A stretch of DNA of 64,000 bases from Candidatus Omnitrophota bacterium (GCA_035292445.1 DATDQB010000024.1:267-64266); one strand, 5' to 3'. Positions 1 through 21,881 are shown, numbered from the stretch's first letter. Program-made: numbers and translations. The notes: generated from the sequence alone by a model not told the origin.

Positions 1-3000
1 TCATCCGCCGGCATCAACTGGGATGAGATCAATACCATGACAGAGGCCGGCATCAACTGGAGCGATATCGGTGTCATGACCGACCAAGGTATCAATTGGT
101 CGGATATCGGCGTCATGAGCGATTCAGATATCAATTGGACGAACATTGGCGACCTCTCAACAGCCGGCATCAATTGGGATGAGATCAACGCCATGACAGA
201 AGCGGGCATCAATTGGGATAACATCGGGGACCTTTCAACAGCCGGCATTAATTGGGATGATATCGAAGCATTGACCACAGCAGGCATTAATTGGACTGAC
301 ATTAACGTTTTGACGCAAGCCGGCATCAATTGGGATGATATCAATGCCATGACGGATGCGGGCATCAACTGGAGTGATATCGGGGTGATGAGCGACGAGG
401 GCATCAATTGGAGCGATATTGGCGTGATGAGCTCTTCCGATATTAACTGGACAAATATCAGTGACCTCTCCAGTACCGGGATCAACTGGAGCGATATCGG
501 GGTCATGAGCGATTCCGATATCAATTGGACCAATATCGGTGATCTTTCAACTGCCGGCATCAACTGGGATGAGATCAATACCATGACCGAGGCCGGCATC
601 AACTGGAGCGATATCGGCGTCATGACCGAGCAGGGCATCAACTGGAGCGATATCGGGGTGATGAGCGATTCAGATATCAATTGGTCGGATATCGCCGATA
701 TGTCTAGCGTTGGCATTAACTGGGAGGACATCAATGCCTTAACGGAAGCGGGTATTAATTGGGATAACATAGAAGAGCTCTCAACGGCCGGCGTCAACTG
801 GGACGGCATCAACGACATGACGGAAGCCGGTATTAATTGGGATGATATCAGCGTATTAAGCGAGGCCGGCATTAATTGGAATGACATCGATGCGATGAGC
901 GAAGTTGGCATTAATTGGACCAATATCGGCGATCTCTCAACGGCGGGCGTTAATTGGTCGGATATCGGCGTCATGAGCACCCGGGGCATCAACTGGGATG
1001 ATATTGGTGTATTAACTGAAACGGGCATCAATTGGGATAATATCGGCGAAATGTCCGATGCCGGCATTAATTGGAATGAGATCGGCGTCATGGCGGAGGC
1101 CGATATCAACTGGGACAACATTTCTGATCTTTCAACCGCCGGCATCAACTGGGATGAGATCAATGCCATGACGGAAGCCGGCATCAACTGGAGCGATATC
1201 GGCGTCATGACCGATCAGGGTATCAACTGGAGCGATATTGGGGTCATGAGCGATTCAGATATCAACTGGTCCAATATCGGTGATCTTTCAACCGCCGGCA
1301 TCAACTGGGATGAGATCAATGCCATGACGGAAGCCGGCATCAACTGGAGCGATATCGGCGTCATGACCGATCAGGGTATCAACTGGAGCGATATCGGGGT
1401 CATGAGCGATTCAGATATCAACTGGTCCAATATCGGTGATCTTTCAACCGCCGGCATCAATTGGGATGAGATCAATGCCATGACGGAAGCCGGCATCAAC
1501 TGGGATGACTTGGCGTTCATGTCAACACAAGGCATCAATTGGTCGGATATTGGCGTTATGTCTGACCAAGGCATCAATTGGAGTGATATAGGGGATCTCT
1601 CCTCGGCAGGTATTAATTGGGATGATATCCAGGAGCTCTCAACCACCGGCATCAACTGGAATGACCTGGATGTGATGACAGAAGCCGGCATTAACTGGTC
1701 GGATATCGGTGCTATGACGGAGGCCGGCATCAACTGGAGCGATATCGGGGTGATGACCGATCAGGGTATCAACTGGAGCGATATCGGGGTGATGAGCGAT
1801 TCTGACATCAACTGGATCAATATCGGTGATCTGTCATCCGCCGGCATCAATTGGGATGAGATCAATGCCATGACGGAAGCCGGCATCAACTGGAGCGATA
1901 TCGGCGTCATGACCGATCAGGGTATCAACTGGAGCGATATTGGGGTCATGAGCGGATCAGATATTAACTGGACCAATATCAGCGACTTATCTTCTGCCGG
2001 AATTAACTGGGGTGATATTACCGATTTAAGTGAAGCCGGCATTAATTGGGATAATATCGGCGATCTCTCATCCGCCGGCATCAATTGGGATGAGATCAAT
2101 GCCATGACAGAGGCCGGCATCAACTGGAGCGATATCGGCGTCATGACCGAGCAGGGCATCAACTGGAGCGATATCGGCGTCATGACCGAGCAGGGTATCA
2201 ACTGGAGCGATATCGGGGTCATGAGCGATTCCGACATCAACTGGTCTGACATTGGTGTCATGTCAACATCGGAGATTAACTGGACCAATATCGGCGATCT
2301 TTCTTCCGCCGGCATTAACTGGGATGAGATCGCTGTCATGGCAGAAACCGGCATCAACTGGGATGATCTGGATGTGATGTCAGATGCGGGCATCAACTGG
2401 AGCGATATCGGCGTCATGACCGAGCAAGGCATCAACTGGAGCGATATCGGCGTCATGACCGAGCAAGGCATCAACTGGTCGGATATCGGAGTGATGTCAA
2501 CATCAGATATCAATTGGACAAATATCGGCGACCTTTCAACCGCCGGCATCAACTGGGATGAGATCAATGCCATGACAGAAGCCGGCATCAATTGGAGCGA
2601 TATCGGGGTGATGACGGACCAGGGCATCAACTGGAGCGATATCGGGGTGATGAGCGGATCAGATATTAACTGGATTAATATCAGCGACTTATCTTCTGCC
2701 GGAATTAACTGGGATGATATTCAAGAACTTTCAACTACCGGCATCAACTGGGATGAGATCAATGCCATGACAGAAGCCGGCATCAATTGGAGCGATATCG
2801 GGGTGATGACGGACCAGGGCATCAACTGGAGCGATATTGGGGTGATGTCCGATCAAGGCATCAACTGGTCTGACATAGGGGTGATGTCAACATCAGATAT
2901 CAATTGGATCAATATCAGCGACTTATCTTCTGCCGGAATTAACTGGGATGATATTCAAGAACTTTCAACTACCGGAATTAATTGGTCGGATATTGGGGTG

Positions 3001-6000
3001 ATGACAGATGCCGGCATCAATTGGTCCGATATCGGGGTCATGAGCGATTCCGATATTAATTGGACTGATCTCAGTGAAATGACTTCCCAAGGCATTAATT
3101 GGAGCGATATAGGCGTCATGAGCGATCAAGGGATCAATTGGAGCGACATTGAAGAAATGAGCACTCAAGGGATCAATTGGTCTGACATTGGGGCAATGTC
3201 CACAGCAGATATCAATTGGACGAACATCGGCGATCTTTCTTCAGCCGGCATCAATTGGGATGAGATCGGCGTTATGGCAGAGGCCGGCGTCAATTGGAAT
3301 GACCTAACGGCTTTGACCGAAGCCGGCATCAACTGGTCGGATATCGGCGTGATGAGCGATCAAGGCATCAACTGGTCTGACATCGGCGTCATGAGCGATC
3401 AAGGCATCAATTGGTCTGACATTGGGGCAATGTCCACAGCAGATATCAATTGGACGAACATCGGCGATCTTTCTTCAGCCGGCATCAACTGGGATGAGAT
3501 CGGCGTTATGGCAGAGGCCGGCGTCAATTGGAATGACCTAACGGCTTTGACCGAAGCCGGCATCAACTGGTCGGATATCGGTGTTATGAGTGAGTCCGAC
3601 ATCAATTGGTCTAATATCGGCGATCTCTCATCAGCCGGTATTAACTGGAATGATATTACGGCCATGACAGAGGCAGGTATCAACTGGTCGGATATCGGCG
3701 TCATGTCCGATCAAGGCATTAATTGGTCTGACATCGGCGTCATGAGCGATCAAGGCATCAATTGGTCTGACATTAACGTCATGTCCGATCAAGGCATCAA
3801 CTGGTCGGACATTGGGGTCATGAGCGATTCGGATATCAATTGGAGCAGTATTGGTGATCTTTCTACAGCAGGCATTAATTGGGATGAAATTACTGCCATG
3901 ACAGAGGCAGGTATCAACTGGTCGGATATCGGTGTCATGTCAGAGCAAGGCATCAACTGGTCGGATATCGGCGTCATGTCCGATCAAGGCATTAATTGGT
4001 CTGACATCGGCGTCATGAGTGATTCCGACATCAACTGGTCTGACATTGGGGCAATGTCCACAGCAGATATCAATTGGACGAACATCGGCGATCTTTCTTC
4101 AGCCGACATCAACTGGGATGAGATCAATGCCATGACCGAAGCCGGCATCAATTGGAGCGACATAGGCGTCATGACCGAGCAAGGCATCAACTGGAGCGAT
4201 ATAGGCGTCATGAGCGATTCCGACATCAACTGGTCGGATATCGGCGTCATGAGCGATTCCGACATCAACTGGTCTGACATTGGGGCAATGTCCACAGCAG
4301 ATATCAATTGGTCTAATATCGGCGACCTCTCATCAGCCGGCATCAACTGGGATGAGATCAACACCATGACCGAAGCCGGCATCAATTGGAGCGACATAGG
4401 CGTCATGACCGAGCAAGGCATCAACTGGAGCGATATAGGCGTCATGAGCGATTCCGACATCAACTGGTCGGATATCGGTGTCATGTCCGAGCAAGGCATC
4501 AACTGGAGCGATATAGGCGTCATGAGCGATTCCGACATCAACTGGTCGGATATCGGTGTCATGTCCGATCAAGGCATCAACTGGTCTGACATTGACATTA
4601 TGTCTGACCAAGGGATCAACTGGTCTGACATTGACATTATGTCCGACCAAGGGATTAATTGGTCGGATATCGGTGTCATGTCCGATCAAGGCATCAACTG
4701 GTCAGACATTGACATCATGTCCGATCAAGGCATCAACTGGTCGGATATCGGGGTGATGAGTTCTCAAGGCGTCAATTGGACTAGTATCGGTGATCTCTCA
4801 ACGGCCGGTATCAATTGGAACGATATTGACATCATGTCCGATCAAGGCATCAACTGGTCGGATATCGGGGTGATGAGCGGCCAGGGCATCAACTGGTCGG
4901 ATATTGGGGTGATGAGCTCGCAAGGCATCAATTGGAGCGATATCGATATTATGAGCGATGCCGGCATCAACTGGTCAGACATTGACATCATGTCCGATCA
5001 AGGCATCAACTGGTCGGATATCGGGGTGATGAGTTCTCAAGGCGTCAATTGGACTAGTATCGGGGACCTTTCAACGGCCGGTATCAATTGGAACGATATT
5101 GACATCATGTCCGAGCAAGGCATCAACTGGTCGGATATCGGGGTGATGAGCGGCCAGGGCATCAACTGGTCGGATATTGGGGTCATGAGCGATTCCGACA
5201 TTAACTGGACCGATCTAAGTGAAATGACTTCCCAAGGCATCAACTGGTCGGATATGGCGGAGATGACCACCGCTGACATCAACTGGTCGGATATCGGGGT
5301 GATGAGCGATCAAGGCATCAACTGGAGCGACATAGGCGTGATGAGTGAAACCGGCATCAACTGGAGCGATATCGGGGAAATGACCACCTCCGGCATTAAT
5401 TGGGATAATATTCAAGACATGACGACGACCGGCATCAACTGGGATGATATCGGCGCGATGGCTTCATCCGGCATCAACTGGACTGATATGGCGGAGATGA
5501 CCACCGCTGACATCAACTGGAGCGATATCGGTGTCATGTCCGATCAAGGCATCAATTGGAGTGATATCGGCATAATGAGTGAAGCAGGCATCAACTGGAG
5601 TGATATTGGGGAAATGAGCGCCTCCGGCATCAACTGGGACAATATCGGAGATATGTCAACGGCGGGCATCAACTGGGAAGATATAACTGTAATGACAACC
5701 CGTGGAATAAATTGGGATGAGATCGGCGTCCTGTCTGATGCGGGTGTTAATTGGGATAATATTTCGGATCTTTCAACAGCGGGGGTGAACTGGGACGGCA
5801 TCAACGACATGACAGAAGCGAACATTAATTGGGACAATGTTGCGGAAATGTCAACAACAGGCATCAATTGGAGCGATATCGGCGTGATGAGCGAATCCGG
5901 CATCAACTGGGGCGATATCAATATCATGAGCGATGCCGGCATTAATTGGGCTGATATAGGCGAGCTCAGTGCCTCAGGCATCAACTGGTCGGATATCGGG

Positions 6001-9000
6001 GTCATGAGTGAAACGAACATTAATTGGGATGATATTGGAGCGCTAACCACTTCTGGCATCAACTGGGGCGATATCAATATCATGAGCGATGCCGGCATTA
6101 ATTGGGCCGATATAGGCGAGCTCAGTGCCTCAGGCATCAACTGGTCGGATATCGAGGTCATAACCGAACAGGGCATCAACTGGTCTGATATCGGGGTCAT
6201 GAGCGATCAGGGCATCAACTGGAGCGATATCGGCGAGCTTTCAGCGGCCGGCATCAATTGGTCGGAGATCGGGGTTATGGCAGAGACTGGTATCAATTGG
6301 GATGACCTTCAGGCATTAAGTACATCAGGCATCAACTGGGATAACATCGGGGATCTCTCTACGGCTGGTATCAATTGGAGTGATATCAATATCATGAGCG
6401 ATGCTGGCATTAACTGGTCGGATATCGGCGTTATGTCCGATCAAGGCATTAACTGGTCAGATATCGGGGTCATGAGCGATCAGGGCATTAATTGGAGTGA
6501 TATCAATGTCATGAGTGAAGCCGGCATTAATTGGGCTGATATCGGAGAACTCAGTTCCTCGGGCATCAACTGGTCTGAAATCGGTGTTATGACCGAAGCC
6601 GGGGTCAATTGGGATGATATCAGCGCCTTAACCACCTCAGGCATCAATTGGGATGATCTGACGTTCATGACCGAAGCCGGTGTCAACTGGGATAACATCG
6701 GGGATCTCTCAACGGCTGGCGTTAACTGGGATAATATCACGGTGATGACGGAGGCCGGCATCAACTGGTCGGACATTGGCGTCATGACCGAGCAAGGCAT
6801 CAACTGGAGCGATATCGGCGAGCTTTCTTCCGCTGGCATCAATTGGAGCGATATCGGGGTCATGAGCGAAACGAATATCAATTGGGATGACCTTCAGGCA
6901 TTGAGTACGACCGGCATCAACTGGGATAATATCGGGGATCTCTCAACGGCCGGCGTTAACTGGGATAATATCACCGTGATGACGGAGGCCGGCATTAACT
7001 GGTCGGATATCGGGGTCATGTCTGACCAAGGCATCAACTGGAGCGATATCGGCGAGCTTTCAGCGGCCGGCATCAATTGGAGCGATATCGGGGTCATGAG
7101 CGAGACCAACATCAATTGGGATGATCTGACTTCCTTGACGGAAGCCGGCATCAATTGGTCGGATATCGGGGTCATGTCTGACCAAGGCATCAACTGGAGC
7201 GATATCGGCGAGCTTTCAGCGGCGGGTATTAACTGGTCTGATCTAAGGGTCATGGGTGATGCGAATATTAATTGGGACAATATCGGAGACCTATCAGCGG
7301 CCGGCATCAATTGGTCGGATATCGGGGTGATGAGCGAGACCAACATCAATTGGGATGACCTCCAGGCATTGAGTACGACCGGCATCAATTGGGATAATAT
7401 CGGGGACTTATCAAGTGCCGGCATCAATTGGGATAATATTGGGGATCTCTCAACGGCCGGTATTAACTGGGGCGATATTACAGTCATGAGTGAACAGGGC
7501 ATTAATTGGGCCGATATAGGAGAACTTAGTTCTTCAGGCATCAACTGGAGCGATATCGGGGTGATGACCGAGCAAGGCATCAACTGGAGCGATTTGACGG
7601 CCTTGACCGAGGCCGGCGTCAATTGGGATAATATCGGGGATCTTTCATCGGTCGGCATTAATTGGGATAATATTAGTGCTATGGCGACGGCCGGTATCAA
7701 TTGGGAAGACATTAGCGCCATGAGCGCCTCGGGTGTCAATTGGGACAGCATTGGCGAACTCTCGGTTGCTGATGTCAACTGGGATAACTTGAGCGAGCTT
7801 TCGGCAGCCGGCGTTAATTGGGATAATCTTAATGTCATGACCGAAGCGGGCATCAACTGGAGCGATATCGGCGCATTAAGTGCTGCGGGCGTGAATTGGG
7901 ATAGTATCGGCAATCTTTCGGCAGCAGGCATCAACTGGGATGATATCGGCGCCATGTCCGATCAAGGTATCAATTGGGCAGACATAGGTGTCCTGACCGA
8001 AGCCGGTATCAATTGGGATGATGTGGGAAGGATGAGCACGGTCGGCATCAATTGGGATGATATCCGGTCTTTAACGCAAGCCGGGATTGATTGGAGCAAT
8101 ATTCAGGAAATGACGGTAGCCGGTATCAATTGGGATGATATCAGCGATATGACGGCTGCGGGCATCAACTGGTCGGATATCGGGGTCATGGCGGCTCAGA
8201 ATATCAATTGGGAGGGCATCGATGTTTTAAGCGATGCCGGCATCAATTGGGAGGATATCGGGAACCTTTCCGAAGCCGGCATCAATTGGGAAGATATCGG
8301 CACCATGGCCGCCTCCGGCATCAACTGGGATGACCTTGAGGCCATGACCACCACCGGCATCAACTGGGATGATGTGGCCTTCATGACGGGTGCCGGCATC
8401 AATTGGAGCGATATGGGTGTTTCCACGACACAAGGCGTCAATTGGAGCGATCTTGCCTTTATGTCCAATGCCGGCGTCAATTGGGACGGCATTGCGTACC
8501 TGGCCGATAACGCCTCGACGCTCATTAGTAACGTCAACACGATCCTTACGACGATACAAAGCCTTGAGAGCATTATCGGAACATCCGCTGACTCGCTGGT
8601 GGATGGGACGCTATTCGGGACGATCAATGAGATCTTGTCTGTTGTCAACGGGCTGAGCCCGGCAGATATCACGGCGATCTTAGCGGCCGTGACGAATATC
8701 GAGGACTTGTTAGGAGTCCCGGGTGATGCGGCCAGCGAAGACACGGTATTCGGCGATCTTTTGCAGACCCAGGAATTCGTCGATACGCTGGAAACGCTTT
8801 TAGGCACGGCTACCGATGCTCCGGAGCTGGAGTCTGTTTTTGGCAAGTTGAACTTTATCTCGGATGCCGCCAACGATGCGGATAACAGTGCCGGAGCCGT
8901 CCTATCCATCGTCACTGAGCTCAGGGATGACGTAGGCGTCAATGGCCAGACACCCAAGCTGTATGACCTTATCCAAAATTTAGCTGTCGAATTGGAAGAT

Positions 9001-9267
9001 CTATCGGGGATCGTCGACAGCATTTCCGACAGTTCGCTCGATTCCAATGCCATTACAGAGGAGATCGTGTCTTTATTGACGGAATTGGTCAACAAGAGCG
9101 CCGAGGCGGCAGGCCTAGAGATGGAAGTCGAAGAATTGGGTCCGGGCGCGGACATGGAAGCAGTTAACGAACGGCTTTCAAAGATCGAGGCCATCCTGCA
9201 GGCCATCCAAGAATCCATTGTCGATGATAAGATATCGGTCAAGACTTACTTTGAAAGCGCTGGTTAG
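1..9267 (+). CDS. Giant acidic tandem-repeat protein, 5'-partial (open from nt 1, continues upstream). It has more than 215 copies of a 13-residue (39-nt) repeat with consensus x-G-I-N-W-x-D-I-G-V-M-x-x, then a ~270-aa non-repetitive acidic C-terminal domain
   Basis: Frame-1 ORF is open from nt 1 and in frame with the track ORF at 37. Strict 39-nt periodicity runs to about nt 8470. The non-repeat tail ends at TAG 9265-9267. All internal antisense and off-frame ORFs are repeat artefacts. Confidence 0.85.
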   Translation, partial: SSAGINWDEINTMTEAGINWSDIGVMTDQGINWSDIGVMSDSDINWTNIGDLSTAGINWDEINAMTEAGINWDNIGDLSTAGINWDDIEALTTAGINWTDINVLTQAGINWDDINAMTDAGINWSDIGVMSDEGINWSDIGVMSSSDINWTNISDLSSTGINWSDIGVMSDSDINWTNIGDLSTAGINWDEINTMTEAGINWSDIGVMTEQGINWSDIGVMSDSDINWSDIADMSSVGINWEDINALTEAGINWDNIEELSTAGVNWDGINDMTEAGINWDDISVLSEAGINWNDIDAMSEVGINWTNIGDLSTAGVNWSDIGVMSTRGINWDDIGVLTETGINWDNIGEMSDAGINWNEIGVMAEADINWDNISDLSTAGINWDEINAMTEAGINWSDIGVMTDQGINWSDIGVMSDSDINWSNIGDLSTAGINWDEINAMTEAGINWSDIGVMTDQGINWSDIGVMSDSDINWSNIGDLSTAGINWDEINAMTEAGINWDDLAFMSTQGINWSDIGVMSDQGINWSDIGDLSSAGINWDDIQELSTTGINWNDLDVMTEAGINWSDIGAMTEAGINWSDIGVMTDQGINWSDIGVMSDSDINWINIGDLSSAGINWDEINAMTEAGINWSDIGVMTDQGINWSDIGVMSGSDINWTNISDLSSAGINWGDITDLSEAGINWDNIGDLSSAGINWDEINAMTEAGINWSDIGVMTEQGINWSDIGVMTEQGINWSDIGVMSDSDINWSDIGVMSTSEINWTNIGDLSSAGINWDEIAVMAETGINWDDLDVMSDAGINWSDIGVMTEQGINWSDIGVMTEQGINWSDIGVMSTSDINWTNIGDLSTAGINWDEINAMTEAGINWSDIGVMTDQGINWSDIGVMSGSDINWINISDLSSAGINWDDIQELSTTGINWDEINAMTEAGINWSDIGVMTDQGINWSDIGVMSDQGINWSDIGVMSTSDINWINISDLSSAGINWDDIQELSTTGINWSDIGVMTDAGINWSDIGVMSDSDINWTDLSEMTSQGINWSDIGVMSDQGINWSDIEEMSTQGINWSDIGAMSTADINWTNIGDLSSAGINWDEIGVMAEAGVNWNDLTALTEAGINWSDIGVMSDQGINWSDIGVMSDQGINWSDIGAMSTADINWTNIGDLSSAGINWDEIGVMAEAGVNWNDLTALTEAGINWSDIGVMSESDINWSNIGDLSSAGINWNDITAMTEAGINWSDIGVMSDQGINWSDIGVMSDQGINWSDINVMSDQGINWSDIGVMSDSDINWSSIGDLSTAGINWDEITAMTEAGINWSDIGVMSEQGINWSDIGVMSDQGINWSDIGVMSDSDINWSDIGAMSTADINWTNIGDLSSADINWDEINAMTEAGINWSDIGVMTEQGINWSDIGVMSDSDINWSDIGVMSDSDINWSDIGAMSTADINWSNIGDLSSAGINWDEINTMTEAGINWSDIGVMTEQGINWSDIGVMSDSDINWSDIGVMSEQGINWSDIGVMSDSDINWSDIGVMSDQGINWSDIDIMSDQGINWSDIDIMSDQGINWSDIGVMSDQGINWSDIDIMSDQGINWSDIGVMSSQGVNWTSIGDLSTAGINWNDIDIMSDQGINWSDIGVMSGQGINWSDIGVMSSQGINWSDIDIMSDAGINWSDIDIMSDQGINWSDIGVMSSQGVNWTSIGDLSTAGINWNDIDIMSEQGINWSDIGVMSGQGINWSDIGVMSDSDINWTDLSEMTSQGINWSDMAEMTTADINWSDIGVMSDQGINWSDIGVMSETGINWSDIGEMTTSGINWDNIQDMTTTGINWDDIGAMASSGINWTDMAEMTTADINWSDIGVMSDQGINWSDIGIMSEAGINWSDIGEMSASGINWDNIGDMSTAGINWEDITVMTTRGINWDEIGVLSDAGVNWDNISDLSTAGVNWDGINDMTEANINWDNVAEMSTTGINWSDIGVMSESGINWGDINIMSDAGINWADIGELSASGINWSDIGVMSETNINWDDIGALTTSGINWGDINIMSDAGINWADIGELSASGINWSDIEVITEQGINWSDIGVMSDQGINWSDIGELSAAGINWSEIGVMAETGINWDDLQALSTSGINWDNIGDLSTAGINWSDINIMSDAGINWSDIGVMSDQGINWSDIGVMSDQGINWSDINVMSEAGINWADIGELSSSGINWSEIGVMTEAGVNWDDISALTTSGINWDDLTFMTEAGVNWDNIGDLSTAGVNWDNITVMTEAGINWSDIGVMTEQGINWSDIGELSSAGINWSDIGVMSETNINWDDLQALSTTGINWDNIGDLSTAGVNWDNITVMTEAGINWSDIGVMSDQGINWSDIGELSAAGINWSDIGVMSETNINWDDLTSLTEAGINWSDIGVMSDQGINWSDIGELSAAGINWSDLRVMGDANINWDNIGDLSAAGINWSDIGVMSETNINWDDLQALSTTGINWDNIGDLSSAGINWDNIGDLSTAGINWGDITVMSEQGINWADIGELSSSGINWSDIGVMTEQGINWSDLTALTEAGVNWDNIGDLSSVGINWDNISAMATAGINWEDISAMSASGVNWDSIGELSVADVNWDNLSELSAAGVNWDNLNVMTEAGINWSDIGALSAAGVNWDSIGNLSAAGINWDDIGAMSDQGINWADIGVLTEAGINWDDVGRMSTVGINWDDIRSLTQAGIDWSNIQEMTVAGINWDDISDMTAAGINWSDIGVMAAQNINWEGIDVLSDAGINWEDIGNLSEAGINWEDIGTMAASGINWDDLEAMTTTGINWDDVAFMTGAGINWSDMGVSTTQGVNWSDLAFMSNAGVNWDGIAYLADNASTLISNVNTILTTIQSLESIIGTSADSLVDGTLFGTINEILSVVNGLSPADITAILAAVTNIEDLLGVPGDAASEDTVFGDLLQTQEFVDTLETLLGTATDAPELESVFGKLNFISDAANDADNSAGAVLSIVTELRDDVGVNGQTPKLYDLIQNLAVELEDLSGIVDSISDSSLDSNAITEEIVSLLTELVNKSAEAAGLEMEVEELGPGADMEAVNERLSKIEAILQAIQESIVDDKISVKTYFESAG

Positions 9268-9269
9268 GG

Positions 9270-10577
9270 ATGAGACGAAACGATCGTATTTTTAAATATG
9301 TGCCATGGGTTGTTGTTTTGCTTCTCATCGGCGTCTTGACGCCTTACGCGTGGGCCGATCTGTATCTGAACATATTGGCCGTTAACGGCTCCGATGTGGC
9401 CAGAGAGAAAGAGATCAGCCAAGTTCTGCCAAAGGAATTAACGGCCGAAGATATTTTGGATACGGATGGATTAAGGCTTGAATATGATGTGGAAACCGGG
9501 GCTTATATGGTCAGCGGCACGGTGGCCTTGGCCCCCAAAGAATCAAAGACGTATAAGATCTTGATCCGCGATCTTTGGAAATTTGACGAAGAGCAAGTTG
9601 GCAAAGTCCGTGAGCAGGTTGAGGTCAGTCTTAAACAGCTTGAGGGCACGGAATATTATGATGTAGGGAAGATCAAGAAGCAGGTGTTATTGCAGAGGCT
9701 TGATTTTCTTCTGCAGGAGCAGGCCAGGTTTGCAGATAACATTGAAAAGCGTATGGATACATTTCGCGTCTATGAGCAGGAAATGGCTACCCTTCGGGAA
9801 CACGCCGGGTCGATCAAATACTGGCGGACAAAGCTCCCGGATACGGAGGATGCGGATGTTTTTTACTTTATTATTGAGCTGGAGAATCCGACGGACGAGC
9901 CGGTCATGAATAACCAGAAATATTATCTTCCTAAAGAGGTAACACCAGAGCATTTCGTTGATTTGCAGGACTTTGATATCCGTTATGATTCGATCAAGCA
10001 GAAATCCTATCTGATAAAAGAAGAGGAATTAAAGCCCAAGGAGGTCAAGCGCTATAATATCGCTCTCATTGATGTATGGAATATTAAGCAGAAAAATTTA
10101 GATAACTTGAAGGAGCGGGCCAAGTATGCGTATCAGTACATTGAGCCGACGAAATATGTAGAGAACGCAAAATATCTGATGGGGAATATCAAGAAGAATT
10201 TTGAGACGATCGAGGGGATTCAGGCCCGGGAAAAGAGCATCAATGAGCATATCAGCGTTTATCGCAGGAATGTCGAACGATTCGCCTCCACCCGCAAAGA
10301 CGTGGAGGCCTTGGAAGAGCTGTTGGAGGTCATCCGCGAAGAACTGAAACGAAGCAAGGTCGAGAATGTCTTGAAGAAGATCCGCGGATTAAGGACGCTT
10401 GTCGACATTGCCAAAAGCATCATGAAGAAACCGGTCGATCAAGTGGCGTGGAATATCATCATGGCCATTCTTATTTTCGTGGGTGTCGTGACCATCATTA
10501 ATTTTGCCATTTGGGGGAGCCGTTCCAAGAATATTGATGAAAAAGAAGAAACGAAAGAAGAGAAAAAAGGATCCTAA
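9270..10577 (+). CDS. Hypothetical bitopic protein: N-terminal signal peptide or anchor (cleavage-like AWA), long charged coiled-coil-like middle, C-terminal TM helix and a KE-rich tail
   Basis: ATG 3 nt after the giant gene stop. Hydrophobic N-terminus VVVLLLIGVLTPYAWA and C-terminal TM IIMAILIFVGVVTIINFAIWG. No recognisable enzymatic motif. Confidence 0.6.
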   Translation: MRRNDRIFKYVPWVVVLLLIGVLTPYAWADLYLNILAVNGSDVAREKEISQVLPKELTAEDILDTDGLRLEYDVETGAYMVSGTVALAPKESKTYKILIRDLWKFDEEQVGKVREQVEVSLKQLEGTEYYDVGKIKKQVLLQRLDFLLQEQARFADNIEKRMDTFRVYEQEMATLREHAGSIKYWRTKLPDTEDADVFYFIIELENPTDEPVMNNQKYYLPKEVTPEHFVDLQDFDIRYDSIKQKSYLIKEEELKPKEVKRYNIALIDVWNIKQKNLDNLKERAKYAYQYIEPTKYVENAKYLMGNIKKNFETIEGIQAREKSINEHISVYRRNVERFASTRKDVEALEELLEVIREELKRSKVENVLKKIRGLRTLVDIAKSIMKKPVDQVAWNIIMAILIFVGVVTIINFAIWGSRSKNIDEKEETKEEKKGS

Positions 10578-10580
10578 CAT

Positions 10581-12143
10581 ATGGAAAATTTGCGTGAGTT
10601 GAAATACACCGAGATCGGCCAGGTCAAAAGCATCCGCGGTTGTATTATTGTCGTGACGGGTTTTAAATCCTGCATCAATGGCCAGTTGGTGCATTTTGGC
10701 TTCGGGACCATGGGCATGATCGTGGGTTTCACTCAAGAAGAAGCCCAGGTGCTTATTTTGAAGGAATCGACGCCAATCAAGACCGGTGATGAGGTGCGCG
10801 CCTCGATGGAGCCGTTTCTGGTCCCTGTGGGGAAAAATTTTATCGGCCGTGTGGTCAACGCCTTGTGTGAGCCGTTTGACAGCTTGGGGCCCATCCAACC
10901 GGAGGCGTTTAATCCGATCTGGCCGAAAGCCCCGGGCATTCTGGACCGCCAGGTCTTAAAGGAGCCGCTGGAAACGGGGACCAAGGTCCTTGATGCCATG
11001 ATCCCTATCGGGTTGGGCCAGCGCCAATTGATATTGGGAAACAAATCGACCGGAAAAACAACGTTTATTACGGATACCATCTTAAACCAAAAACATACAG
11101 GTGTGGTTTGTATCTATTGCGCCATCGGGAAGGCCCGTTCGCAGCTCTTGCGGGCTGTCCATCTTTTTAACAAATACAACGCCTTTGACTACACGATCGT
11201 GGTGGCTGCCCCTTCATCTTCGCCGCCGGGGCAGCAGTACCTGGCGCCGTATGTGGCCTGTTCATTGGGAGAATATTTCCGCGATCGCGGCGGAAGCGTC
11301 TTTATCGGATTTGACGATTACACCAAGCATGCCTGGTGTTACCGTGAGATATCACTTTTGTTGGGGCGGGCCCCGGGGCGCGATTCTTATCCGGGCGATA
11401 TTTTTTACCTGCATTCAAAGATGATCGAGCGGGCGTGCCGCTTAAGCGATAAAAACGGCGGCGGTTCCATGACGTTTCTGCCGATCGTTGAGATATTGGA
11501 AGGCGATCTGACAGGCTACATCCCGACCAATTTGATCTCCATGACCGACGGCCAGGTTTATTTGGATGCGTCGTTATTCGGCGAAGGGCAAAAACCGGCT
11601 TTGGACCTAGGTTTGTCGGTTTCCCGCACGGGGACCAAGGTCCAGTGGTCGATCGTCAAGGATTTAAGCGCGCCCCTTCGTTTGGAATACCTGCAGTATC
11701 GGGAATTGGTCCGTATCTCCCGTTTGCGCGCGGGCAAACAGCCGGAGGAAGTGGCGGCTAAATTGAAAAGCGGGGAGATTTTAACATATTTACTTCGACA
11801 AGATAAAAATTCACCGGTCCGCATGGAGCATTTAATTCTCATCCTTTGGGGATTTCACAAGAAACATTTGCATAAATTGACCATTGAGGAGGTCAAGACA
11901 TTCGAGAAGGACATTTTCCCCTTTGCCCAGGAAAGAAATCCCGAGTTGATCAAGATTATCCGGCAACGCAAGAAGCTCGATGATGAGATCGAGAAGGGGC
12001 TGGAAGAAGTGCTACAGGCCTATATCAAGAAAGTAAAGCCCAAGGCCAAATTTAAGAAGGAAGATGGGGAGGAAGACGCGATTGTTGGTAAGATAGGCAA
12101 GAAAGTCCTGGAAGAAACATCCGGAAGGATGGGGAAAGCGTAA
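10581..12143 (+). CDS. atpA: F-type ATPase alpha subunit, divergent (P-loop GNKSTGKT instead of GDRQTGKT)
   Basis: Collinear with the E. coli AtpA core: CIYCAIGKA vs CIYVAIGQK, QYLAPYVACSLGEYFRDRG vs QYLAPYAGCAMGEYFRDRG, LLLGRAPGRDSYPGDIFYLHS, TDGQVYLD. Confidence 0.85.
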   Translation: MENLRELKYTEIGQVKSIRGCIIVVTGFKSCINGQLVHFGFGTMGMIVGFTQEEAQVLILKESTPIKTGDEVRASMEPFLVPVGKNFIGRVVNALCEPFDSLGPIQPEAFNPIWPKAPGILDRQVLKEPLETGTKVLDAMIPIGLGQRQLILGNKSTGKTTFITDTILNQKHTGVVCIYCAIGKARSQLLRAVHLFNKYNAFDYTIVVAAPSSSPPGQQYLAPYVACSLGEYFRDRGGSVFIGFDDYTKHAWCYREISLLLGRAPGRDSYPGDIFYLHSKMIERACRLSDKNGGGSMTFLPIVEILEGDLTGYIPTNLISMTDGQVYLDASLFGEGQKPALDLGLSVSRTGTKVQWSIVKDLSAPLRLEYLQYRELVRISRLRAGKQPEEVAAKLKSGEILTYLLRQDKNSPVRMEHLILILWGFHKKHLHKLTIEEVKTFEKDIFPFAQERNPELIKIIRQRKKLDDEIEKGLEEVLQAYIKKVKPKAKFKKEDGEEDAIVGKIGKKVLEETSGRMGKA

Positions 12144-12146: not shown

Positions 12147-12428
12147 ATGATCAATTTTAAGGGGACATTTAAGTGCGTGATCTTAAGCCCGCATACCTTG
12201 ATCTATCAAAACGATGTTCAAAGCGTGTTTTTAAGGGGCAATGCGGGAGAGTATGAAATATTGGCGTACCATTACCCTTTACTGGGGGTATTAAGGAAAG
12301 GCGATATCATTATCAATTGGAACGAGCGGGTTAAGATTAATGGCGGGGTCGTCAAATTTTTTGCGAACGAATGTATCATTATGGTGGAGGAGGAAATTCG
12401 CCCGTATAACGAGGCTGAATTCAAATAA
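12147..12428 (+). CDS. atpC: F-type ATPase epsilon subunit, short form (beta-sandwich only, no C-terminal helical hairpin)
   Basis: VILSPHTLIYQNDVQSVFLRGNAGEYEILAYHYPLLGVL matches the epsilon N-domain pattern (SPE...G.GE.GIL..H.PLL). Only 93 aa. Confidence 0.6.
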   Translation: MINFKGTFKCVILSPHTLIYQNDVQSVFLRGNAGEYEILAYHYPLLGVLRKGDIIINWNERVKINGGVVKFFANECIIMVEEEIRPYNEAEFK

Positions 12429-12431: not shown

Positions 12432-12650
12432 ATGGTAGCTGAAACTTTCATTATTATTGCGATCATGTTCGTAGCCGTTATGGGGCCGTCGCTGGTGATC
12501 GCCCTTGTCGGCCAGTCGGTCATTAAGGCCCTGGCCAGAAATCCGTCTGCGGCCTCCAAGATATTTATGGGAATGATTGTTCTATTGCTTTTTGTCGAGG
12601 CGATTGCCATTGTTGCGTTGTTGGTGATTTTTCAGCTGTTCTCGAATTAA
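12432..12650 (+). CDS. atpE: F-type ATPase c subunit (proteolipid)
   Basis: 72 aa, two TM helices, loop ARNPSAAS (compare ARQPE), conserved carboxylate in helix 2 (FVEAIAI). Confidence 0.7.
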   Translation: MVAETFIIIAIMFVAVMGPSLVIALVGQSVIKALARNPSAASKIFMGMIVLLLFVEAIAIVALLVIFQLFSN

Positions 12651-12659
12651 AGGGACAAA

Positions 12660-12893
12660 ATGGAACCGTTTAATTTAGTAAGCGAGGCCGTCATCTTTAT
12701 CGCCGTGTTTTCGATCGTTGTCATGCTACCGTGCTATTTCGTGGTCATGATCGGGCGAGATATGATCGATCAGATCGGGCAGTTCCCGACGATGGCGGCA
12801 AGGATCCAATTGAAGGCGCTGTTTAAACTGGTGGCGGTCGAACTGGTGTCGTTTTTTCTTTTGATCGCCTTTTACCGCGTATTTGCCCATTAA
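12660..12893 (+). CDS. Small two-helix membrane protein, possibly a second divergent c-like proteolipid (Glu in helix 2, AVELVSFF)
   Basis: 77 aa, RBS aaaggga, two hydrophobic helices, located between atpE and atpF. Assignment is by position and topology only. Confidence 0.4.
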   Translation: MEPFNLVSEAVIFIAVFSIVVMLPCYFVVMIGRDMIDQIGQFPTMAARIQLKALFKLVAVELVSFFLLIAFYRVFAH

Positions 12894-12914: not shown

Positions 12915-13667
12915 ATGCAATATGAAAGCTTAATCATCGGATTCGTCGTTGTTCAGATATTTATCGTGGGGGTGATCGTTGTCTGGCTGCGGATGGCCTT
13001 GATTTCCAGCACGGAGGGGGCGGTCAACCGGCTCAATGAGGAGATCGCCAAGGCAAATGCCCGGCAGTCGGATTTAAGCAAGAAACTGCGGGAAGCTGAT
13101 GAGGAGCTGAACCGAAGGCGCGCCGAGGCCAAATCACTGACCGACAAGATGCGTGCGGACGCCCAGGAACAATCCAAAGAAGAGCGGGAGAAGATAATTT
13201 CCGAAGCGAGGAAAGAAAGCGAAGACATCCTCAACAAGGCCCAGAACGCGAAGGTCAAGATCCGCCAAGATTTGGAAAAAGAGGTCGATGTCAAGGTCAT
13301 CCAGGTCGGGATGAAGATCGTTAACGGCGTTTTGAGCGACAAGGCCAAAGGGATCTTGCATAACATTTTGGTCGATGAATTTATCGATAAATTAAAAGAA
13401 ACCCGGATGGACCGCATTAATCAGGATATCGGTGCCATTGATGTCGTCACGGTCGAGCCGTTGGATGACACCCGCAAGAACCGGATCAACGAGATCGTAA
13501 AGGAAAAGATGGGGCGGGAAGTCAAATTCAATTATTCAACGGACACCGCCATCGGCGGGGGGGTTGTCATGAAATTCGGCAGCATGGCCTTGGATGGGAG
13601 CGTTAAGAACTTGATTCGCCAAAGCGCCACCAATTTGCAGGAAGAGATCGAATCCAGGTATACGTAA
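12915..13667 (+). CDS. F-type ATPase b subunit fused to delta (OSCP)
   Basis: N-terminal TM and a long charged coiled coil (b-like). The C-terminus has the delta signature TAIGGGVVMKFGSMALDGSVKNLI. Confidence 0.7.
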   Translation: MQYESLIIGFVVVQIFIVGVIVVWLRMALISSTEGAVNRLNEEIAKANARQSDLSKKLREADEELNRRRAEAKSLTDKMRADAQEQSKEEREKIISEARKESEDILNKAQNAKVKIRQDLEKEVDVKVIQVGMKIVNGVLSDKAKGILHNILVDEFIDKLKETRMDRINQDIGAIDVVTVEPLDDTRKNRINEIVKEKMGREVKFNYSTDTAIGGGVVMKFGSMALDGSVKNLIRQSATNLQEEIESRYT

Positions 13668-13671: not shown

Positions 13672-16055
<2,384 letters not shown>

Positions 16056-18327: not shown

Positions 18328-19539
18328 ATGGCCACCTATATTTACAGAGCCAAAAAAAGTACCGCCGAAACTGTCACGGGCACGGTCAAGGCCCAAAGCC
18401 AGGATGAGGCCATCGACCTCATTAACCAGCTGGGGCTGTTGCCGATTTCTGTGAAGCCGCAGGAGGAGAGGGAGGAGAGCGGCGCCATTTCCCGGACGAG
18501 GACCGTCTCTTCCAAAGAACGCTACATATTCACCAAACAATTGGCCAATCTGTTAAAATCCGGCGTGACGATCCTGCGGGCCTTGGCGATCATCGGTGAA
18601 CAGACCCATAATCGTTTTCTAAGAAGGGTCATCGAGCATATCGGTCATCAGATCAAAAACGGCAAGTCGCTTTCGCAGGCGCTTTCGGTGTATCCCAATT
18701 TATTTTCCTCTTTGTATGTGACTATGGTCGCGGCCGGCGAGGAAAGCGGCAATTTGCAGTCGATGCTGGTATCGGTCGCCGAGTACCAGTTCCGCGAAGA
18801 GGAGATCCGCTCCAAGGTGCGCATGGCCGTCGCTTATCCTATTTTGATGCTCATTGTCGGGGGCGCGACGATCTATTTTATGCTGTCTTTTGTGCTGCCA
18901 AAGATGTCGGGGTTATTTGCCAACATGGGAGAGCAGCTTCCTTTGCCGACACAGATCTTATTGGGCGTCAGCAAGGCGATCAACCAATGGGGCTTATTCG
19001 GCATCCTGGCGGCGGTGGTCGGCGTATTTGTCGTTTTGCAATGGGCCAAATCGGCGTATGGGAAACGCGTCTTAAGCCAATTTATTTTAGGGATACCTCT
19101 CATCGGCGACATCTTGCTCAAGACGGAGCTGGCGCGGTTTTGCCGGACGCTGGTCCTTTTGAACCAGGGGGGGATCTCATTGGTGCATTCCCTTCATATC
19201 GCGATCCCTATTTTAGAGAATGAAGTGGTCAAGAACCATTTGATCCGATGCAAAGAGGCATTGCTGGCCGGCGGCTCTTTCGGGGAAACCCTTAAAAAAT
19301 CCAGCCAGATCCCCACGATGATGGGTTATATGATCTCGGTGGGGGAAGAGTCCGGGAGCCTTGATGAGGTCCTTATTGAGCTGGCCGTTTCTTTTGAGGG
19401 GGAAACGAACGAACGCATCAAGGTCATGACGACCCTATTGGAGCCGGTCTTGATATTGGCCATCGGCGTTATCGTCGGTTTCATTGTTTTTGCCATGTTG
19501 CTGCCTATCTTTCAGTTGGATATCATGTCTCAAGGATGA
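18328..19539 (+). CDS. Type II/IV secretion platform protein (GspF/PilC family)
   Basis: 403 aa with two T2SF-type repeats and three TM segments. Typical position after the ATPase. Confidence 0.85.
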   Translation: MATYIYRAKKSTAETVTGTVKAQSQDEAIDLINQLGLLPISVKPQEEREESGAISRTRTVSSKERYIFTKQLANLLKSGVTILRALAIIGEQTHNRFLRRVIEHIGHQIKNGKSLSQALSVYPNLFSSLYVTMVAAGEESGNLQSMLVSVAEYQFREEEIRSKVRMAVAYPILMLIVGGATIYFMLSFVLPKMSGLFANMGEQLPLPTQILLGVSKAINQWGLFGILAAVVGVFVVLQWAKSAYGKRVLSQFILGIPLIGDILLKTELARFCRTLVLLNQGGISLVHSLHIAIPILENEVVKNHLIRCKEALLAGGSFGETLKKSSQIPTMMGYMISVGEESGSLDEVLIELAVSFEGETNERIKVMTTLLEPVLILAIGVIVGFIVFAMLLPIFQLDIMSQG

Positions 19540-20396: not shown

Positions 20397-20822
20397 ATGT
20401 TTCTTGGGTCGATCATAAAGAAAAAAGGCTTTACGTTGGTTGAAATCATGCTTGTTGTCATCATCATCGCGGCACTTTCAGCCATGGTGGTTCCGCGGCT
20501 GGTGGGGCGTTCCGAACAGGCCAAGGTATCCGTGGCCCGTTCCGACATTGAAGCCCATTTGTCAACGGCCCTTAAGCTGTATGAATTGGATAACGGCAGT
20601 TTCCCGACGACCGCTCAAGGCTTGCAGGCCTTGAAGGTCCAGCCTACGACCGCCCCCGCGCCCAAGAACTGGAACGGCCCGTATGTCGAAAAAGACCCCC
20701 TCGACCCCTGGGGCAATTCTTATGTTTACGCATCTCCCGGGAAGAACCGGCCCGATTACGACCTTTATTCCACGGGCAAGAATCCCGATTCCCCCGATGA
20801 TGACATAAAAAACTGGGAATAA
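20397..20822 (+). CDS. gspG: Major pseudopilin, GspG family (prepilin N-terminus GFTLVEIM)
   Basis: KKGFTLVEIMLVVIIIAALSAMVVPRL and the GspG signature NWNGPYV...DPWGN.Y.Y. Confidence 0.85.
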   Translation: MFLGSIIKKKGFTLVEIMLVVIIIAALSAMVVPRLVGRSEQAKVSVARSDIEAHLSTALKLYELDNGSFPTTAQGLQALKVQPTTAPAPKNWNGPYVEKDPLDPWGNSYVYASPGKNRPDYDLYSTGKNPDSPDDDIKNWE

Positions 20823-20831
20823 CCTCTTCCC

Positions 20832-21879: not shown

Positions 21880-21881
21880 AA

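Follow-up and report, generated by a model that had tools for sequence, protein, structure and literature searches.

Giant INW-repeat proteins encoded at the non-respiratory F-type ATPase/T4aP-like locus of Omnitrophota

In Omnitrophota, a non-respiratory 'symbiotic' type-2/3-like F-type ATPase/T4aP locus has been described as a putative attachment/motility system, thought to serve the attachment of these tiny bacteria to host cells (Seymour et al. 2023, PMC10066038). In the passages of that paper that were searched, genes for the ATPase and the pilus are described and 'giant ORFs' are treated apart from them, and a repeat protein is not given as a fixed member of the locus; an analogy of the ATPase to Mycoplasma mobile is also proposed there. 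Gliding of M. mobile on host surfaces involves very large surface proteins (Gli349/Gli521) driven by an internal F1-like ATPase, a diverged F1 alpha/beta motor (PMC7052211, PMC8406192, PMC11864180). Very long genes are further known from Omnitrophota as those of the Archaeovorins and the Dockerin-type giants, which adjoin T2SS/T4-like secretion genes and for which host or prey contact has been proposed (West-Roberts et al. 2023, bioRxiv 10.1101/2023.11.21.568195; 10.64898/2026.06.07.730766).

Here, a window of 64,000 nucleotides from a Candidatus Omnitrophota bacterium (GCA_035292445.1, DATDQB010000024.1:267-64266) was analysed, which starts inside a gene for a giant protein of 13-residue units. 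The family to which this protein belongs is unnamed and unannotated in databases, and we refer to its members as INW-repeat proteins. No sequence similarity was found between the INW protein and the Gli349/Gli521 gliding machinery. The Gli proteins are not 13-residue arrays. M. mobile is not known to possess an outer membrane or genes for a secretin or pilus, nor is its motor known to include a c-ring or b-delta subunits, whereas the Omnitrophota cluster retains the c, b-delta, gamma and epsilon subunits. Giant fibrillar adhesins carry extenders such as the Ig-repeat stalks of MpIBP, SiiE and LapA-type proteins or the helical-bundle rod of S. aureus Ebh; they are signal-bearing surface proteins, their length from anchor to binding end depends on how many tandem repeats they hold, and copy number differs strongly between lineages, as it does in INW proteins. 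Their extender repeats are folded domains of 80-130 residues from known Pfam families, in contrast to the INW unit with 13 residues, one predicted helix and no Pfam or PDB match.

Like the INW gene, the genes of the Archaeovorins and Dockerin-type giants lie beside secretion genes, but that secretion locus is Tad-like (rcpC, Rotamase_2) and the one of the INW gene bears an ATPase. The many TM segments, SecA-DEAD, HEAT, dockerin or TSP3 regions and the lengths above 30,000 aa of those giants are absent from the visible part of the INW protein. Searches with Pfam gave no many-TM, SecA DEAD-like or HEAT match in the C-terminal part present in the window or in full-length relatives, and no transmembrane-length hydrophobic segment was apparent by eye in the 3088 residues; an Archaeovorin-type identity was thus rejected. 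A Dockerin-type identity was rejected likewise, no RTX, EF-hand, dockerin or thrombospondin type 3 (TSP3) match being obtained with Pfam for the window protein or its relatives.

On the plus strand, frame 1 contains an ORF that is already open at base 1 and is closed by a TAG stop codon at 9265-9267 (gene part, 1..9267), giving 3088 C-terminal codons; the 5' part of the gene lies upstream of the window, so that the full length is at least 3088 residues. Positions 7..8508 are occupied by 218 uninterrupted units of 39 nt, as revealed by TRF and by counting the spacing of the NW dipeptide (once DW), which was exactly 13 residues in all 217 intervals, with no indel. The single ORF of more than 3000 aa and the more than 215 tandem units claimed in an earlier note on this DNA were thereby recovered without a frame break. 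The consensus unit in the window is A-G-I-N-W-S-D-I-G-V-M-S-[DE]. That note had also taken I-N-W and D-I as invariant; among the 218 units this holds for W (218) and N (217), while position 2 is I or V (199/19) and D-I is dominant only, with D at position 6 in 150 units and I at position 7 in 194. Gly is present in 180 units and position 10 is M or L (147/69). The invariant Asn is encoded by AAC in 118 and by AAT in 99 units, and this codon mix implies that conservation acts at the protein level. The most homogeneous units lie in the middle of the array and the most diverged are the last ~40. Over the whole ORF, the composition (D 378, E 143, K 6, R 7, W 218, C 0, H 0; net charge -508) agrees with the earlier description as very acidic, Trp-rich and Cys-free.

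The array is followed by a non-repeat tail (8509..9264), which had been put at ~270 aa and helical; it is non-repeat and, by prediction, helical, but has 253 residues. It contains three G-x-x-D-x5-T-[LV]-F-G motifs and the C-terminal family motif V-K-T-[WY]-F-E-S, the protein ending with ISVKTYFESAG, which fits the family ending V-[VI]-K-[TS]-[WY]-[FY]-E. The window tail could be aligned with those of 11 relatives, and it agrees with the tails recorded at 75 loci. In the AF2 model of the orthologue P0006, the tail is helical at a pLDDT of ~70-80 and is predicted to be a helical bundle. As had been noted earlier, it carries no LPXTG, PEP-CTERM or T9SS CTD sorting signal detectable with Pfam or NCBIfam, but a family-specific helical domain.

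Neither the array nor the tail matched Pfam, NCBIfam, PHROGs or PDB sequences at threshold, in line with the claim that the repeat fits no described family, and in a literature search the INW motif was found printed in no paper. The sole Pfam echo was Lysostaphin_N (PF25533); two pieces of the window protein scored 45.2 and 25.7 bits and the relative P0001 scored 27 bits, against a gathering threshold of 60 bits. Membership was rejected at this score, the match tracking periodicity and acidic composition only; the lysostaphin N-terminal repeats share the 13-residue period but not the invariant Asn-Trp. RTX/beta-roll repeats (GGxGxDxUx nonapeptides, HemolysinCabind; period 9), pentapeptide repeats (A(D/N)LXX) and ice-nucleation repeats (16 residues, 8/48) were rejected by the period of 13 and the lack of a Pfam match, as the earlier note had held.

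The family proved to be phylum-wide, which goes beyond the single-window view of the earlier note. The same architecture was found at no fewer than 78 Omnitrophota genome loci and 43 metagenome loci; a homologue search returned 40 homologues, nearly all labelled Candidatus Omnitrophota, and an exhaustive profile search gave 175 representatives at E<=1e-10. Arrays range from ~24 to at least 712 units, the latter in a scaffolded gene spanning 29.7 kb, and the longest array in one open piece among the 78 genome loci has 341 units. The family consensus is [AST]-G-[IV]-N-W-x-D-h-x-x-[LM]-[ST]-x. In the profile of 8391 units from 83 loci, G1, [IV]2, N3 (99%), W4, D6, h7, [LM]10 and [ST]11 are conserved and positions 5, 8, 9 and 12 are variable; all 218 units of the window fit this definition in register. 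Full-length relatives begin with a Sec signal peptide, after which come a pair of Ig-like domains (in some cases with LamG or other modules in front of them), a helical lead-in, the array and the conserved helical tail. The model of the Ig-like pair reached a pLDDT of 80-94, and its fold is matched by tandem Ig structures. By analogy with these relatives, the window protein would carry a putative signal peptide as well.

Downstream, all on the plus strand, the start codon of a gene for a 435-aa protein (9270..10577) lies 2 nt past the INW stop codon. Its product has an N-terminal signal peptide (…AWA|DL), one C-terminal transmembrane helix and no family match at threshold. Then follow genes for an F1 alpha-like subunit of a non-respiratory F-type ATPase (10581..12143; PF00006, PF00306; P-loop GNKSTGKT), an F1 epsilon-like subunit (12147..12428; PF02823), two small two-helix membrane proteins (12432..12893), namely a c subunit of 72 aa, whose PF00137 assignment is on record for the identical gene in contig L001, and a c-like protein of 77 aa with no family, a b-delta (OSCP) fusion stator subunit (12915..13667), an F1 gamma-like subunit (13672..14541) and an F1 beta-like subunit (14553..16055; P-loop GGAGCGKT); no a subunit was found in the cluster. 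The adjoining secretion genes encode a GspE/PilB-type assembly ATPase that begins with an MshEN domain and ends with a PilZ domain (16058..18280), a GspF/PilC platform protein (18328..19539), a secreted MA-superfamily metallopeptidase (19536..20351), the GspG-like, 149-aa pilin-like, GspJ-like and GspK pseudopilins/minor pilins (20397..22919) and, at the end of the cluster, a PilM-PilN fusion, a PilO-like and a TPR protein (22989..25907). With ATPase genes at 10581-16055 and GspE from 16058, the locus agrees with the description of Seymour et al. (both within 10 kb; PMC10066038), the ATPase set adjoining GspE/GspF/pilin/PilMNO genes; the assignment is by gene set and neighbours.

The gene run INW, 435-aa bitopic protein, alpha, epsilon, c, c-like, b-delta, gamma, beta, GspE, GspF and pseudopilins is conserved. 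Starting from INW genes, a homologue of the 435-aa protein together with ATPase genes was found downstream in 74 of 75 genome loci and GspE in 66 of 66, a bitopic protein of about 390-470 aa ahead of the F-type ATPase-like genes being part of the family definition. In the reverse direction, seeded with the ATPase gene in a different, metagenomic collection, the 435-aa gene was present in 53/53 loci and INW units lay upstream in 43/43, the array filling all seven full 10-kb upstream flanks. A strict INW-435-aa-ATPase linkage in both directions is thus shown here. Upstream of the INW gene, relatives carry ExeA-like, GspC-like, secretin and TPR genes.

From this synteny and the domain architecture, we give about an even chance to the INW protein being secreted and serving, as a fibre or tether whose length varies, as a part of this attachment machine. 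After Sec export it may pass through the secretin of the adjoining T2SS/T4aP-like system, as gene order suggests; a point against this route is that the known T2SS substrates are, as a rule, folded and compact rather than fibres several thousand residues long. The fibre could then act as a length-adjustable surface tether or 'leg' of an attachment/motility machine that the non-respiratory F-type ATPase would power, the mechanical link again being suggested by gene order, as is docking of the conserved tail on this machine, where the 435-aa protein may be the partner. The Ig/lectin-like N-terminus would then face outward, and repeat number, shifting by block duplication, would fix the reach.

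A passive extracellular coat or matrix, in which the protein, once exported through the neighbouring secretion system, makes up a hydrated polyanionic layer or a capsule-like 'velamen' with no mechanical coupling to the ATPase, appears unlikely. Size and charge of the protein, the signal peptide of relatives and the adjacent T2SS-like genes would suit such a role, and giant Omnitrophota proteins have been proposed as coat formers (PMC10066038). However, the linkage to the 435-aa protein and the ATPase genes extends beyond secretion genes alone, and conserved ends on both sides of a spacer of variable length are more typical of a two-point tether.

It is improbable that the protein is a heavily N-glycosylated, mucin-like carrier, with the invariant Asn of I-N-W-[ST] as acceptor for an STT3-like oligosaccharyltransferase, whose gene occupies 25901-28393 of the minus strand. 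The STT3 match (57.5 bits) lies in the same neighbourhood, N-W-S/T occurs in 126 of the 218 units, Asp stands at -2 in 30 units, 24 of which thereby contain the bacterial sequon D-x-N-x-S/T, and GT2-DUF2304-GT2 genes are found upstream of the cluster in relatives. Family-wide, however, S/T occupies +2 in a median of 32% of units and this position is among the most variable, while Asn is 99% conserved, so that Asn conservation is structural. Glycosylation is compatible with the tether reading as an added modification.

Concerning the shape of the fibre, two independent AlphaFold models placed a helix at positions 4/5-12 and a loop at 0-3 (DSSP) in 16/16 and ~23/24 units, with low confidence over the repeats (pLDDT 40-55), and the periodicity of conservation entropy peaks at 100-110 degrees. 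These data are a consistent hint, not a structure, that the unit corresponds to a single capped alpha-helix of 9 residues and a G-I turn. Each unit would be a short alpha-helix from W4 to x12, capped at its N-terminus by a capping box, in which N3 is the N-cap and D6 takes position N3, together with a hydrophobic staple of I2 and I7, and at its C-terminus by a Schellman-type Gly cap (M10, G1, I2), by which helix-turn-helix stacking would account for the whole consensus. Position 8, mostly Gly in the window lineage and unfavourable in mid-helix, counts against a helical unit. Hundreds of units could build a regular rod or spring, thin and with a length in the range of tens to hundreds of nanometres, and an elongated fibre, as expected earlier, would still be the most sensible shape.

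The beta-solenoid implied by the earlier note, with 13 residues per coil forming a long acidic, Ca2+-binding filament or sheet, is very improbable. The strict period, two turn-prone positions per unit in the window lineage (G1, G8), the -2.16 charges per unit of the window array and the room that low pLDDT leaves for a non-helical fold speak for it, but both AF2 runs gave one helix per unit in the same register, the conserved hydrophobics are spaced 4-7-10 and do not alternate, the periodicity of conservation peaks at 100-110 degrees, and G8 is found in just 20% of units family-wide. Within the family, the net charge of a unit lies anywhere between -2.7 and -0.09, which means that acidity is no family requirement, and this, with the lack of RTX, EF-hand, dockerin and TSP3 matches reported above, leaves Ca2+ binding unsupported. 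That the protein is an acidic spacer which is intrinsically disordered and lacks a fixed fold (entropic brush) is hard to credit: low pLDDT, low sequence complexity and high net charge would suit it, but W, N, I/V, L/M and G are near-invariant at fixed positions over the 8391 units despite synonymous change, hundreds of units are free of indels, and disordered repeats do not keep such a register and hydrophobic pattern.

At the nucleotide level, 199 of the 218 units are distinct; identity between units averages 63% and exact internal repeats reach ~115 nt at most, which is why the array is not a looped assembly of few units. Other samples yielded six independent short-read contigs that match window positions 5236-17125 at 98-100%; all six break inside the array, so that independent support begins at base 5236 and 1-5235 is uncovered. 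That an assembler inflated a much shorter repeat, as might be suspected from these contig ends, from contig L002, the distal 2 kb of which differ by 1.6% and contain 3 gaps, and from an exact search in which an 88-mer of the window 5' end had no match in metagenome contigs, is nevertheless extremely improbable and was dismissed in favour of a real giant ORF, given the unit diversity, a longest repeat shorter than common assembly k-mers and reads, a reading frame unbroken over 8.5 kb, and relatives in megabase contigs and the complete chromosome OY759724.1 that hold at least 245-288 units (10-kb view).

Weak Pfam matches were obtained to RecG_dom3_C and SAM_EPH, and NCBIfam recomb_DMC1 matched below threshold over its first 23-45 positions (25 bits against a cut-off of 447.7). 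The helix-hairpin-helix/Rad51-DMC1 N-terminal motif shares with the INW unit the local pattern h-x-x-A-G-[IV]-N-x-x-D-[IV]-x-x-[LM], but such motifs occur once or twice per domain and not as a continuous 13-residue array; the resemblance is a lead on local turn geometry only.

Translation of the plus strand in frame 1 revealed a single open frame running from base 1 of the window to a TAG stop at 9265-9267 and comprising 3088 residues. The spacing from one Asn-Trp (in one case Asp-Trp) to the next is exactly 13 residues in 217 of 217 instances, giving 218 complete units at nt 7-8508 with zero insertions or deletions, and Tandem Repeats Finder found the corresponding 39-nt period throughout the array together with local higher-order periods. 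With positions counted from 0, the unit consensus is A-G-I-N-W-S-D-I-G-V-M-S-[DE]. Trp4 is invariant and Asn3 is present in 217/218 units; position 2 is Ile (199) or Val (19), position 10 mostly Met (147) or Leu (69), and Gly1 occurs in 180/218 units. The earlier note had reported a giant ORF of 13-residue repeats, which was confirmed as one open frame with its 218 units in register. The "D-I" pair it considered invariant is dominant but not invariant (Asp6 in 150/218 units), and the non-repeat tail following the array, put by it at ~270 aa, is present but measures 253 residues. Of the residues of the ORF, 521 are acidic, 13 are basic and 218 are Trp; Cys and His are absent.

We refer to proteins of this type, consisting of an array of 13-residue units and a conserved helical tail, as INW-repeat proteins. 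Neither the repeat and tail nor full-length relatives and the 435-aa membrane protein encoded by the next gene had a match at threshold in Pfam, NCBIfam or PHROGs, and PDB sequences gave nothing at threshold for the repeat, the tail or the family profile, in agreement with the initial impression that no described repeat family is involved. The sole echo came from Pfam Lysostaphin_N, whose repeat likewise has 13 residues; it scored 45 bits, below the cut-off of 60. When the AlphaFold model of the orthologue P0006 was submitted to Foldseek, only tandem-Ig matches to its N-terminal domains were obtained, and with the low-confidence model of a 16-repeat block nothing was found below E = 0.01. In public records, the relatives appear as "hypothetical protein" or under the name of an accessory domain. 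The INW motif is not printed in any paper of the literature searched, nor is the repeat described in the searched passages of the work on giant proteins and loci of Omnitrophota.

Using the last 605 residues as the query, 40 homologous proteins were retrieved, almost all of them Omnitrophota (Candidatus) sequences. When 1.84 billion representatives were searched exhaustively with a profile, 782 matched at E ≤ 1e-3; many of the weak ones are unrelated repeats, e.g. BspA-type leucine-rich repeats, and 782 therefore overstates the family, for which the 175 proteins at E ≤ 1e-10 (35 at E ≤ 1e-30) are a better guide. A scan of one genome per species gave 176 matching stretches; 78 distinct loci were retained from these, nearly all of them in Omnitrophota MAGs. 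At eight loci, including the complete chromosome OY759724.1 and a 1.34-Mb contig, the array extends past the 10-kb view with 276-288 units visible, and on a 1.63-Mb contig 245 visible units reach the contig's own end. There are also N-terminal halves, 4378-4791 residues long and containing 309-341 units, and the scaffolded INW gene of JBFWOS010000001.1 spans 29.7 kb, with at least 712 units in five gap-separated pieces, none of which contains a stop. The window's at least 218 units are therefore ordinary for the family.

Full-length members start with a Sec signal peptide ending in …ALA|Q[FY][ST]GG, followed by two Ig-like domains, a short helical lead-in with I-K-A-K-T-D-T-I-N-W, the array, and a conserved tail ending in V-V-K-[TS]-W-[FY]-E; some carry additional N-terminal modules (LamG, Ig_Rha78A_N). 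Between these conserved ends the copy number is variable, with ~30 units in P0002 (868 aa), ~24 in P0006 (900 aa), ~42 in P0043 (1292 aa) and ~74 in P0042 (2809 aa). A homologue search with an N-terminal domain, aimed at full-length sizes, recovered 3 fragments only. In the P0006 model, the Ig pair (pLDDT 80-94) matches structures of tandem Ig domains, and the tail is modelled as a bundle of helices (pLDDT ~70-80). The lead-in 'IKAKTDTINW', which we took to resemble phage fibre motifs, was dropped as a clue after a tblastn search of phage genomes gave one insignificant match only. An irregular unit with a 6-residue insertion, …[YF]M[ST]GAGVNW[DT]ETINWDNL…, is conserved in P0041, P0042, P0043 and P0006; it recurs in distant relatives at a similar place near the N-terminal array end, outside the window's reach, and looks like a positional landmark. 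The representative search also returned P0139 (871 aa), with at least 15 in-register copies of another 13-residue Trp repeat, D-G-T-L-W-G-K-V-K-Y-L-E-A. This repeat has the Trp/hydrophobic spacing of the INW unit, but is basic rather than acidic and lacks the Asn; it may represent a sister repeat class.

A profile of 8391 units from 83 loci reads [A50 T16 S16]-G87-[I63 V33]-N99-W-x-D73/N12-[I L V M F]-x-x-[L57 M35]-[S67 T23]-x. Family-wide, positions 5, 8, 9 and 12 are highly variable; conserved residues recurring at 4, 7 and 10/11 are interleaved with variable ones at 5, 8/9 and 12, and the per-position entropy has its maximum of Fourier power at 100-110 degrees, as expected of an alpha-helix. 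AlphaFold, run on the 16-unit window block with 25 other, overlapping blocks of the same array and separately on P0006 with 22 relatives, placed a helix at positions 4/5-12 and a loop at 0-3 in essentially every unit; confidence in the repeat regions was low in both runs (pLDDT 40-55; 49 for the 16-unit block). The capping box, the hydrophobic staple and the Schellman C-cap are textbook helix-end motifs. Judged from the consensus, Asn3 (N-cap) and Asp6 (N3) would form a capping box, Ile2 (N') and Ile7 (N4) a hydrophobic staple, and Met/Leu10 (C3), Gly1 (C') and Ile2 (C'') a Schellman C-cap; thus, all conserved positions but Trp4 and Ser/Thr11 would be explained by the starting and stopping of a helix of nine residues. 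G-[IV]-N, at the junction, may be a sequence of the type that occurs at tight helix-helix corners, and Trp4 together with positions 7 and 10 would make up the ridge that is buried where helices stack. With ~13.5 Å taken for the helix length and ~10 Å for helix packing, 218 units would span ~0.05-0.3 µm and 700 units up to ~1 µm, depending on the packing. The 13-residue unit may turn out to be the smallest helical repeat in nature from which a regular rod can be built, a possibility of interest to structural biologists and protein designers.

The INW stop is separated by 2 nt from the gene of the 435-aa protein, which has a signal peptide and one C-terminal membrane helix. It is followed by an ATPase-like set (10581-16055) in the order alpha-like, epsilon, c, second c-like, b-delta fusion, gamma and beta-like, then by GspE with MshEN and PilZ domains, GspF, an MA-type peptidase, GspG-, GspJ- and GspK-like pseudopilins, PilM-PilN, a PilO-like protein and a TPR protein. 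No a subunit was found in this cluster or in five relatives with called genes. In a scan of 8400-26500, no promoter-like or terminator-like site was placed at the INW/435-aa junction; over the whole stretch, both were in slight excess over shuffled sequence (27 vs 18.8 ± 3.9 and 29 vs 23.1 ± 4.2, respectively). Upstream of the INW gene, relatives carry ExeA-like, GspC-like, secretin and TPR genes and, in some, also genes of two FGE-sulfatase-domain proteins.

With the INW tail as the starting point, 74/75 genome loci carry, directly downstream, the alpha-like ATPase gene as well as the 435-aa homologue; GspE is present in 66/66 and the remaining ATPase genes in nearly all eligible loci, with the second c-like gene detected by BLAST in 49/74. 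The reverse test, seeded with the ATPase alpha-like gene in a separate collection (JGI metagenomes), recovered the 435-aa gene in 53/53 loci with at least 1.5 kb upstream and INW units in 43/43 with at least 2.6 kb; all seven full 10-kb upstream flanks were filled by 197-204 units, and in most other contigs the array occupies the upstream sequence to the contig end. Operon linkage is strict and holds in both directions, and the INW gene, always giant in these relatives, therefore looks like a fixed component of the F-type ATPase locus.

Several further features of the locus were recorded. The second c-like protein has 77 aa, and the c subunit retains its membrane-embedded Glu (…LLFVEAIAI…). 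The GspE/PilB-type ATPase (16058-18280) has its MshEN domain at the N-terminus and PilZ at the C-terminus; in a related contig (L009) PilZ is a separate gene. As MshEN and PilZ are known c-di-GMP-binding modules, their presence suggests that the machine may be under c-di-GMP control. A secreted MA-superfamily metallopeptidase (19536-20351) lies between GspF and the GspG-like gene, possibly the expected place of the prepilin peptidase, and no A24 prepilin peptidase was detected among the window ORFs scanned against Pfam. One or two FGE-sulfatase-domain (PF03781) genes lie directly upstream of the INW gene at 6796-9991 of L007 (GCA_016201795.1) and in the P0006 contig, while other relatives have three small ORFs in their place; the domain is also present in the gliding/T9SS proteins GldJ/GldK and PorK.

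Omnitrophota are abundant, ultra-small and uncultured bacteria thought to be attached to, or to prey on, other cells. We propose that the INW protein would be exported by Sec and then pass the secretin of the adjoining T2SS/T4aP-like system. The array would form a thin helical-repeat rod or spring. Docking on the machine would be through the conserved tail, for which the obvious candidate partner is the 435-aa protein co-translated with it; the Ig/lectin-like N-terminal end would face outward for host contact, and the unit copy number would tune the reach. This secreted, tail-docked, host-facing rod of tunable length has, in our estimate, about an even chance of being correct. The window locus is of the type treated by Seymour et al. 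(2023), who, drawing an analogy to Mycoplasma mobile, propose that it lets the cells attach to their hosts and move on them (PMC10066038). In M. mobile, giant "leg" proteins act together with an F1-like motor (PMC7052211, PMC8406192, PMC11864180); the INW protein would be their unrelated counterpart.

Giant, poorly annotated surface proteins and an odd F-type ATPase beside pilus genes were known before from Omnitrophota. New within the searches made are the 13-residue INW repeat, absent from Pfam, NCBIfam and PDB, the reading of its unit as a minimal capped helix, and the strict membership of its gene in the ATPase locus. Without exception among the loci sampled, the ATPase/pilus locus carries a giant fibre protein of variable length, which makes the INW protein a concrete candidate for the host-touching part. 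The family also explains the frequent breaks of Omnitrophota assemblies at this locus, and some "giant ORFs without annotated domains" of earlier surveys may be INW genes. These results bear on Omnitrophota, secretion machines and repeat-protein structure alike.

That the INW protein is instead a passive coat is rather unlikely. Quite unlikely, too, is a more far-reaching version of the host-facing rod, in which the fibre is the moving element of a new rotary-motor-driven surface machine and its unit a previously unseen one-helix-per-repeat solenoid fold. Here, the F-type ATPase (c-ring, gamma/epsilon and b-delta, with no a subunit in the cluster) would turn and, via the 435-aa bitopic protein, pull, reel or swing a fibre of up to ~10,000 residues passing the T2SS-type secretin. 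If true, this would be a bacterial 'winch' or grappling line, with which the ultra-small Omnitrophota seize host cells and move on them.

A glycosylated carrier, which would be compatible with the host-facing rod, is improbable. It is favoured by N-W-S/T sequons in 126/218 window units, by D-x-N-x-S/T, which is formed in 24 of the 30 units that have Asp at -2, and by a neighbouring gene of an 830-aa STT3-like oligosaccharyltransferase (25901-28393, minus strand; PF02516, 57.5 bits), convergent at the end of the pilus/T2SS cluster; against it, the sequon is not conserved family-wide, the median being 32% of units. N-glycosylation as the reason for the Asn conservation was accordingly rejected in a family-wide test and is kept as a possible modification only.

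The beta-solenoid and Ca2+-binding filament envisaged in the earlier note found no support and is decidedly improbable, since the hydrophobic spacing is not alternating, Gly8 is specific to the window lineage (20% family-wide), and no RTX, EF-hand, dockerin or TSP3 signal was detected. Net charge per unit among relatives ranges from -2.7 to -0.09 (median -1.6), and acidity is common among INW proteins, not family-defining. More improbable still is that the array serves as a disordered spacer.

Least probable of all is an assembly artefact, which we consider very unlikely. Relatives in megabase-scale contigs and in a complete chromosome have arrays equally long or longer. At the DNA level, 199/218 window units are distinct, mean unit-unit identity is 63%, and the longest exact repeat within the array is ~115 nt. 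The invariant Asn is encoded by AAC (118) or AAT (99) and Ile by ATC or ATT; conservation therefore acts at the protein level. Mid-array units are most alike, with a weak 6-unit (234-nt) super-repeat, and divergence is greatest in the last ~40 units, a pattern typical of arrays growing by internal block duplication. Contigs of six other samples (Logan SRR3989293/95/96, ENA ERZ27254795/865 and JGI 3300002124) carry an identical copy of the neighbouring gene and align to window 5236-17125 at 98-100%. All six stop within the array, and the distal 5.2 kb is therefore without independent confirmation from them; an exact 88-mer from the window's 5' end had no match in metagenome contigs. Alignment of L002 1-2080 (ENA ERZ27254795) with window 5236-7176 revealed 1.6% difference and three gaps within the array, the first 354 nt of L002 matching at only 89%, which points to strain-level array variation or to local misassembly in that contig.

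Elsewhere in the window, a 238-aa protein (29862-30578) gave a marginal PEP-CTERM match (21.0 bits against a cut-off of 20.7), and a second small N-methyl pilin/PilX-like gene set lies at 32314-34358, downstream of the main cluster. The region from 35 to 64 kb is otherwise ordinary chromosomal housekeeping, with pentose-phosphate and beta-oxidation genes and sigma-54. It includes a 692-aa protein with cyclic-nucleotide-binding and patatin-like phospholipase domains (50768-52846) and one 713-aa ORF (54606-56747) joining porphobilinogen deaminase, a TP_methylase domain of the uroporphyrinogen-III methyltransferase type and uroporphyrinogen-III synthase (HemC-CobA-HemD), an unusual three-enzyme fusion for tetrapyrrole synthesis.
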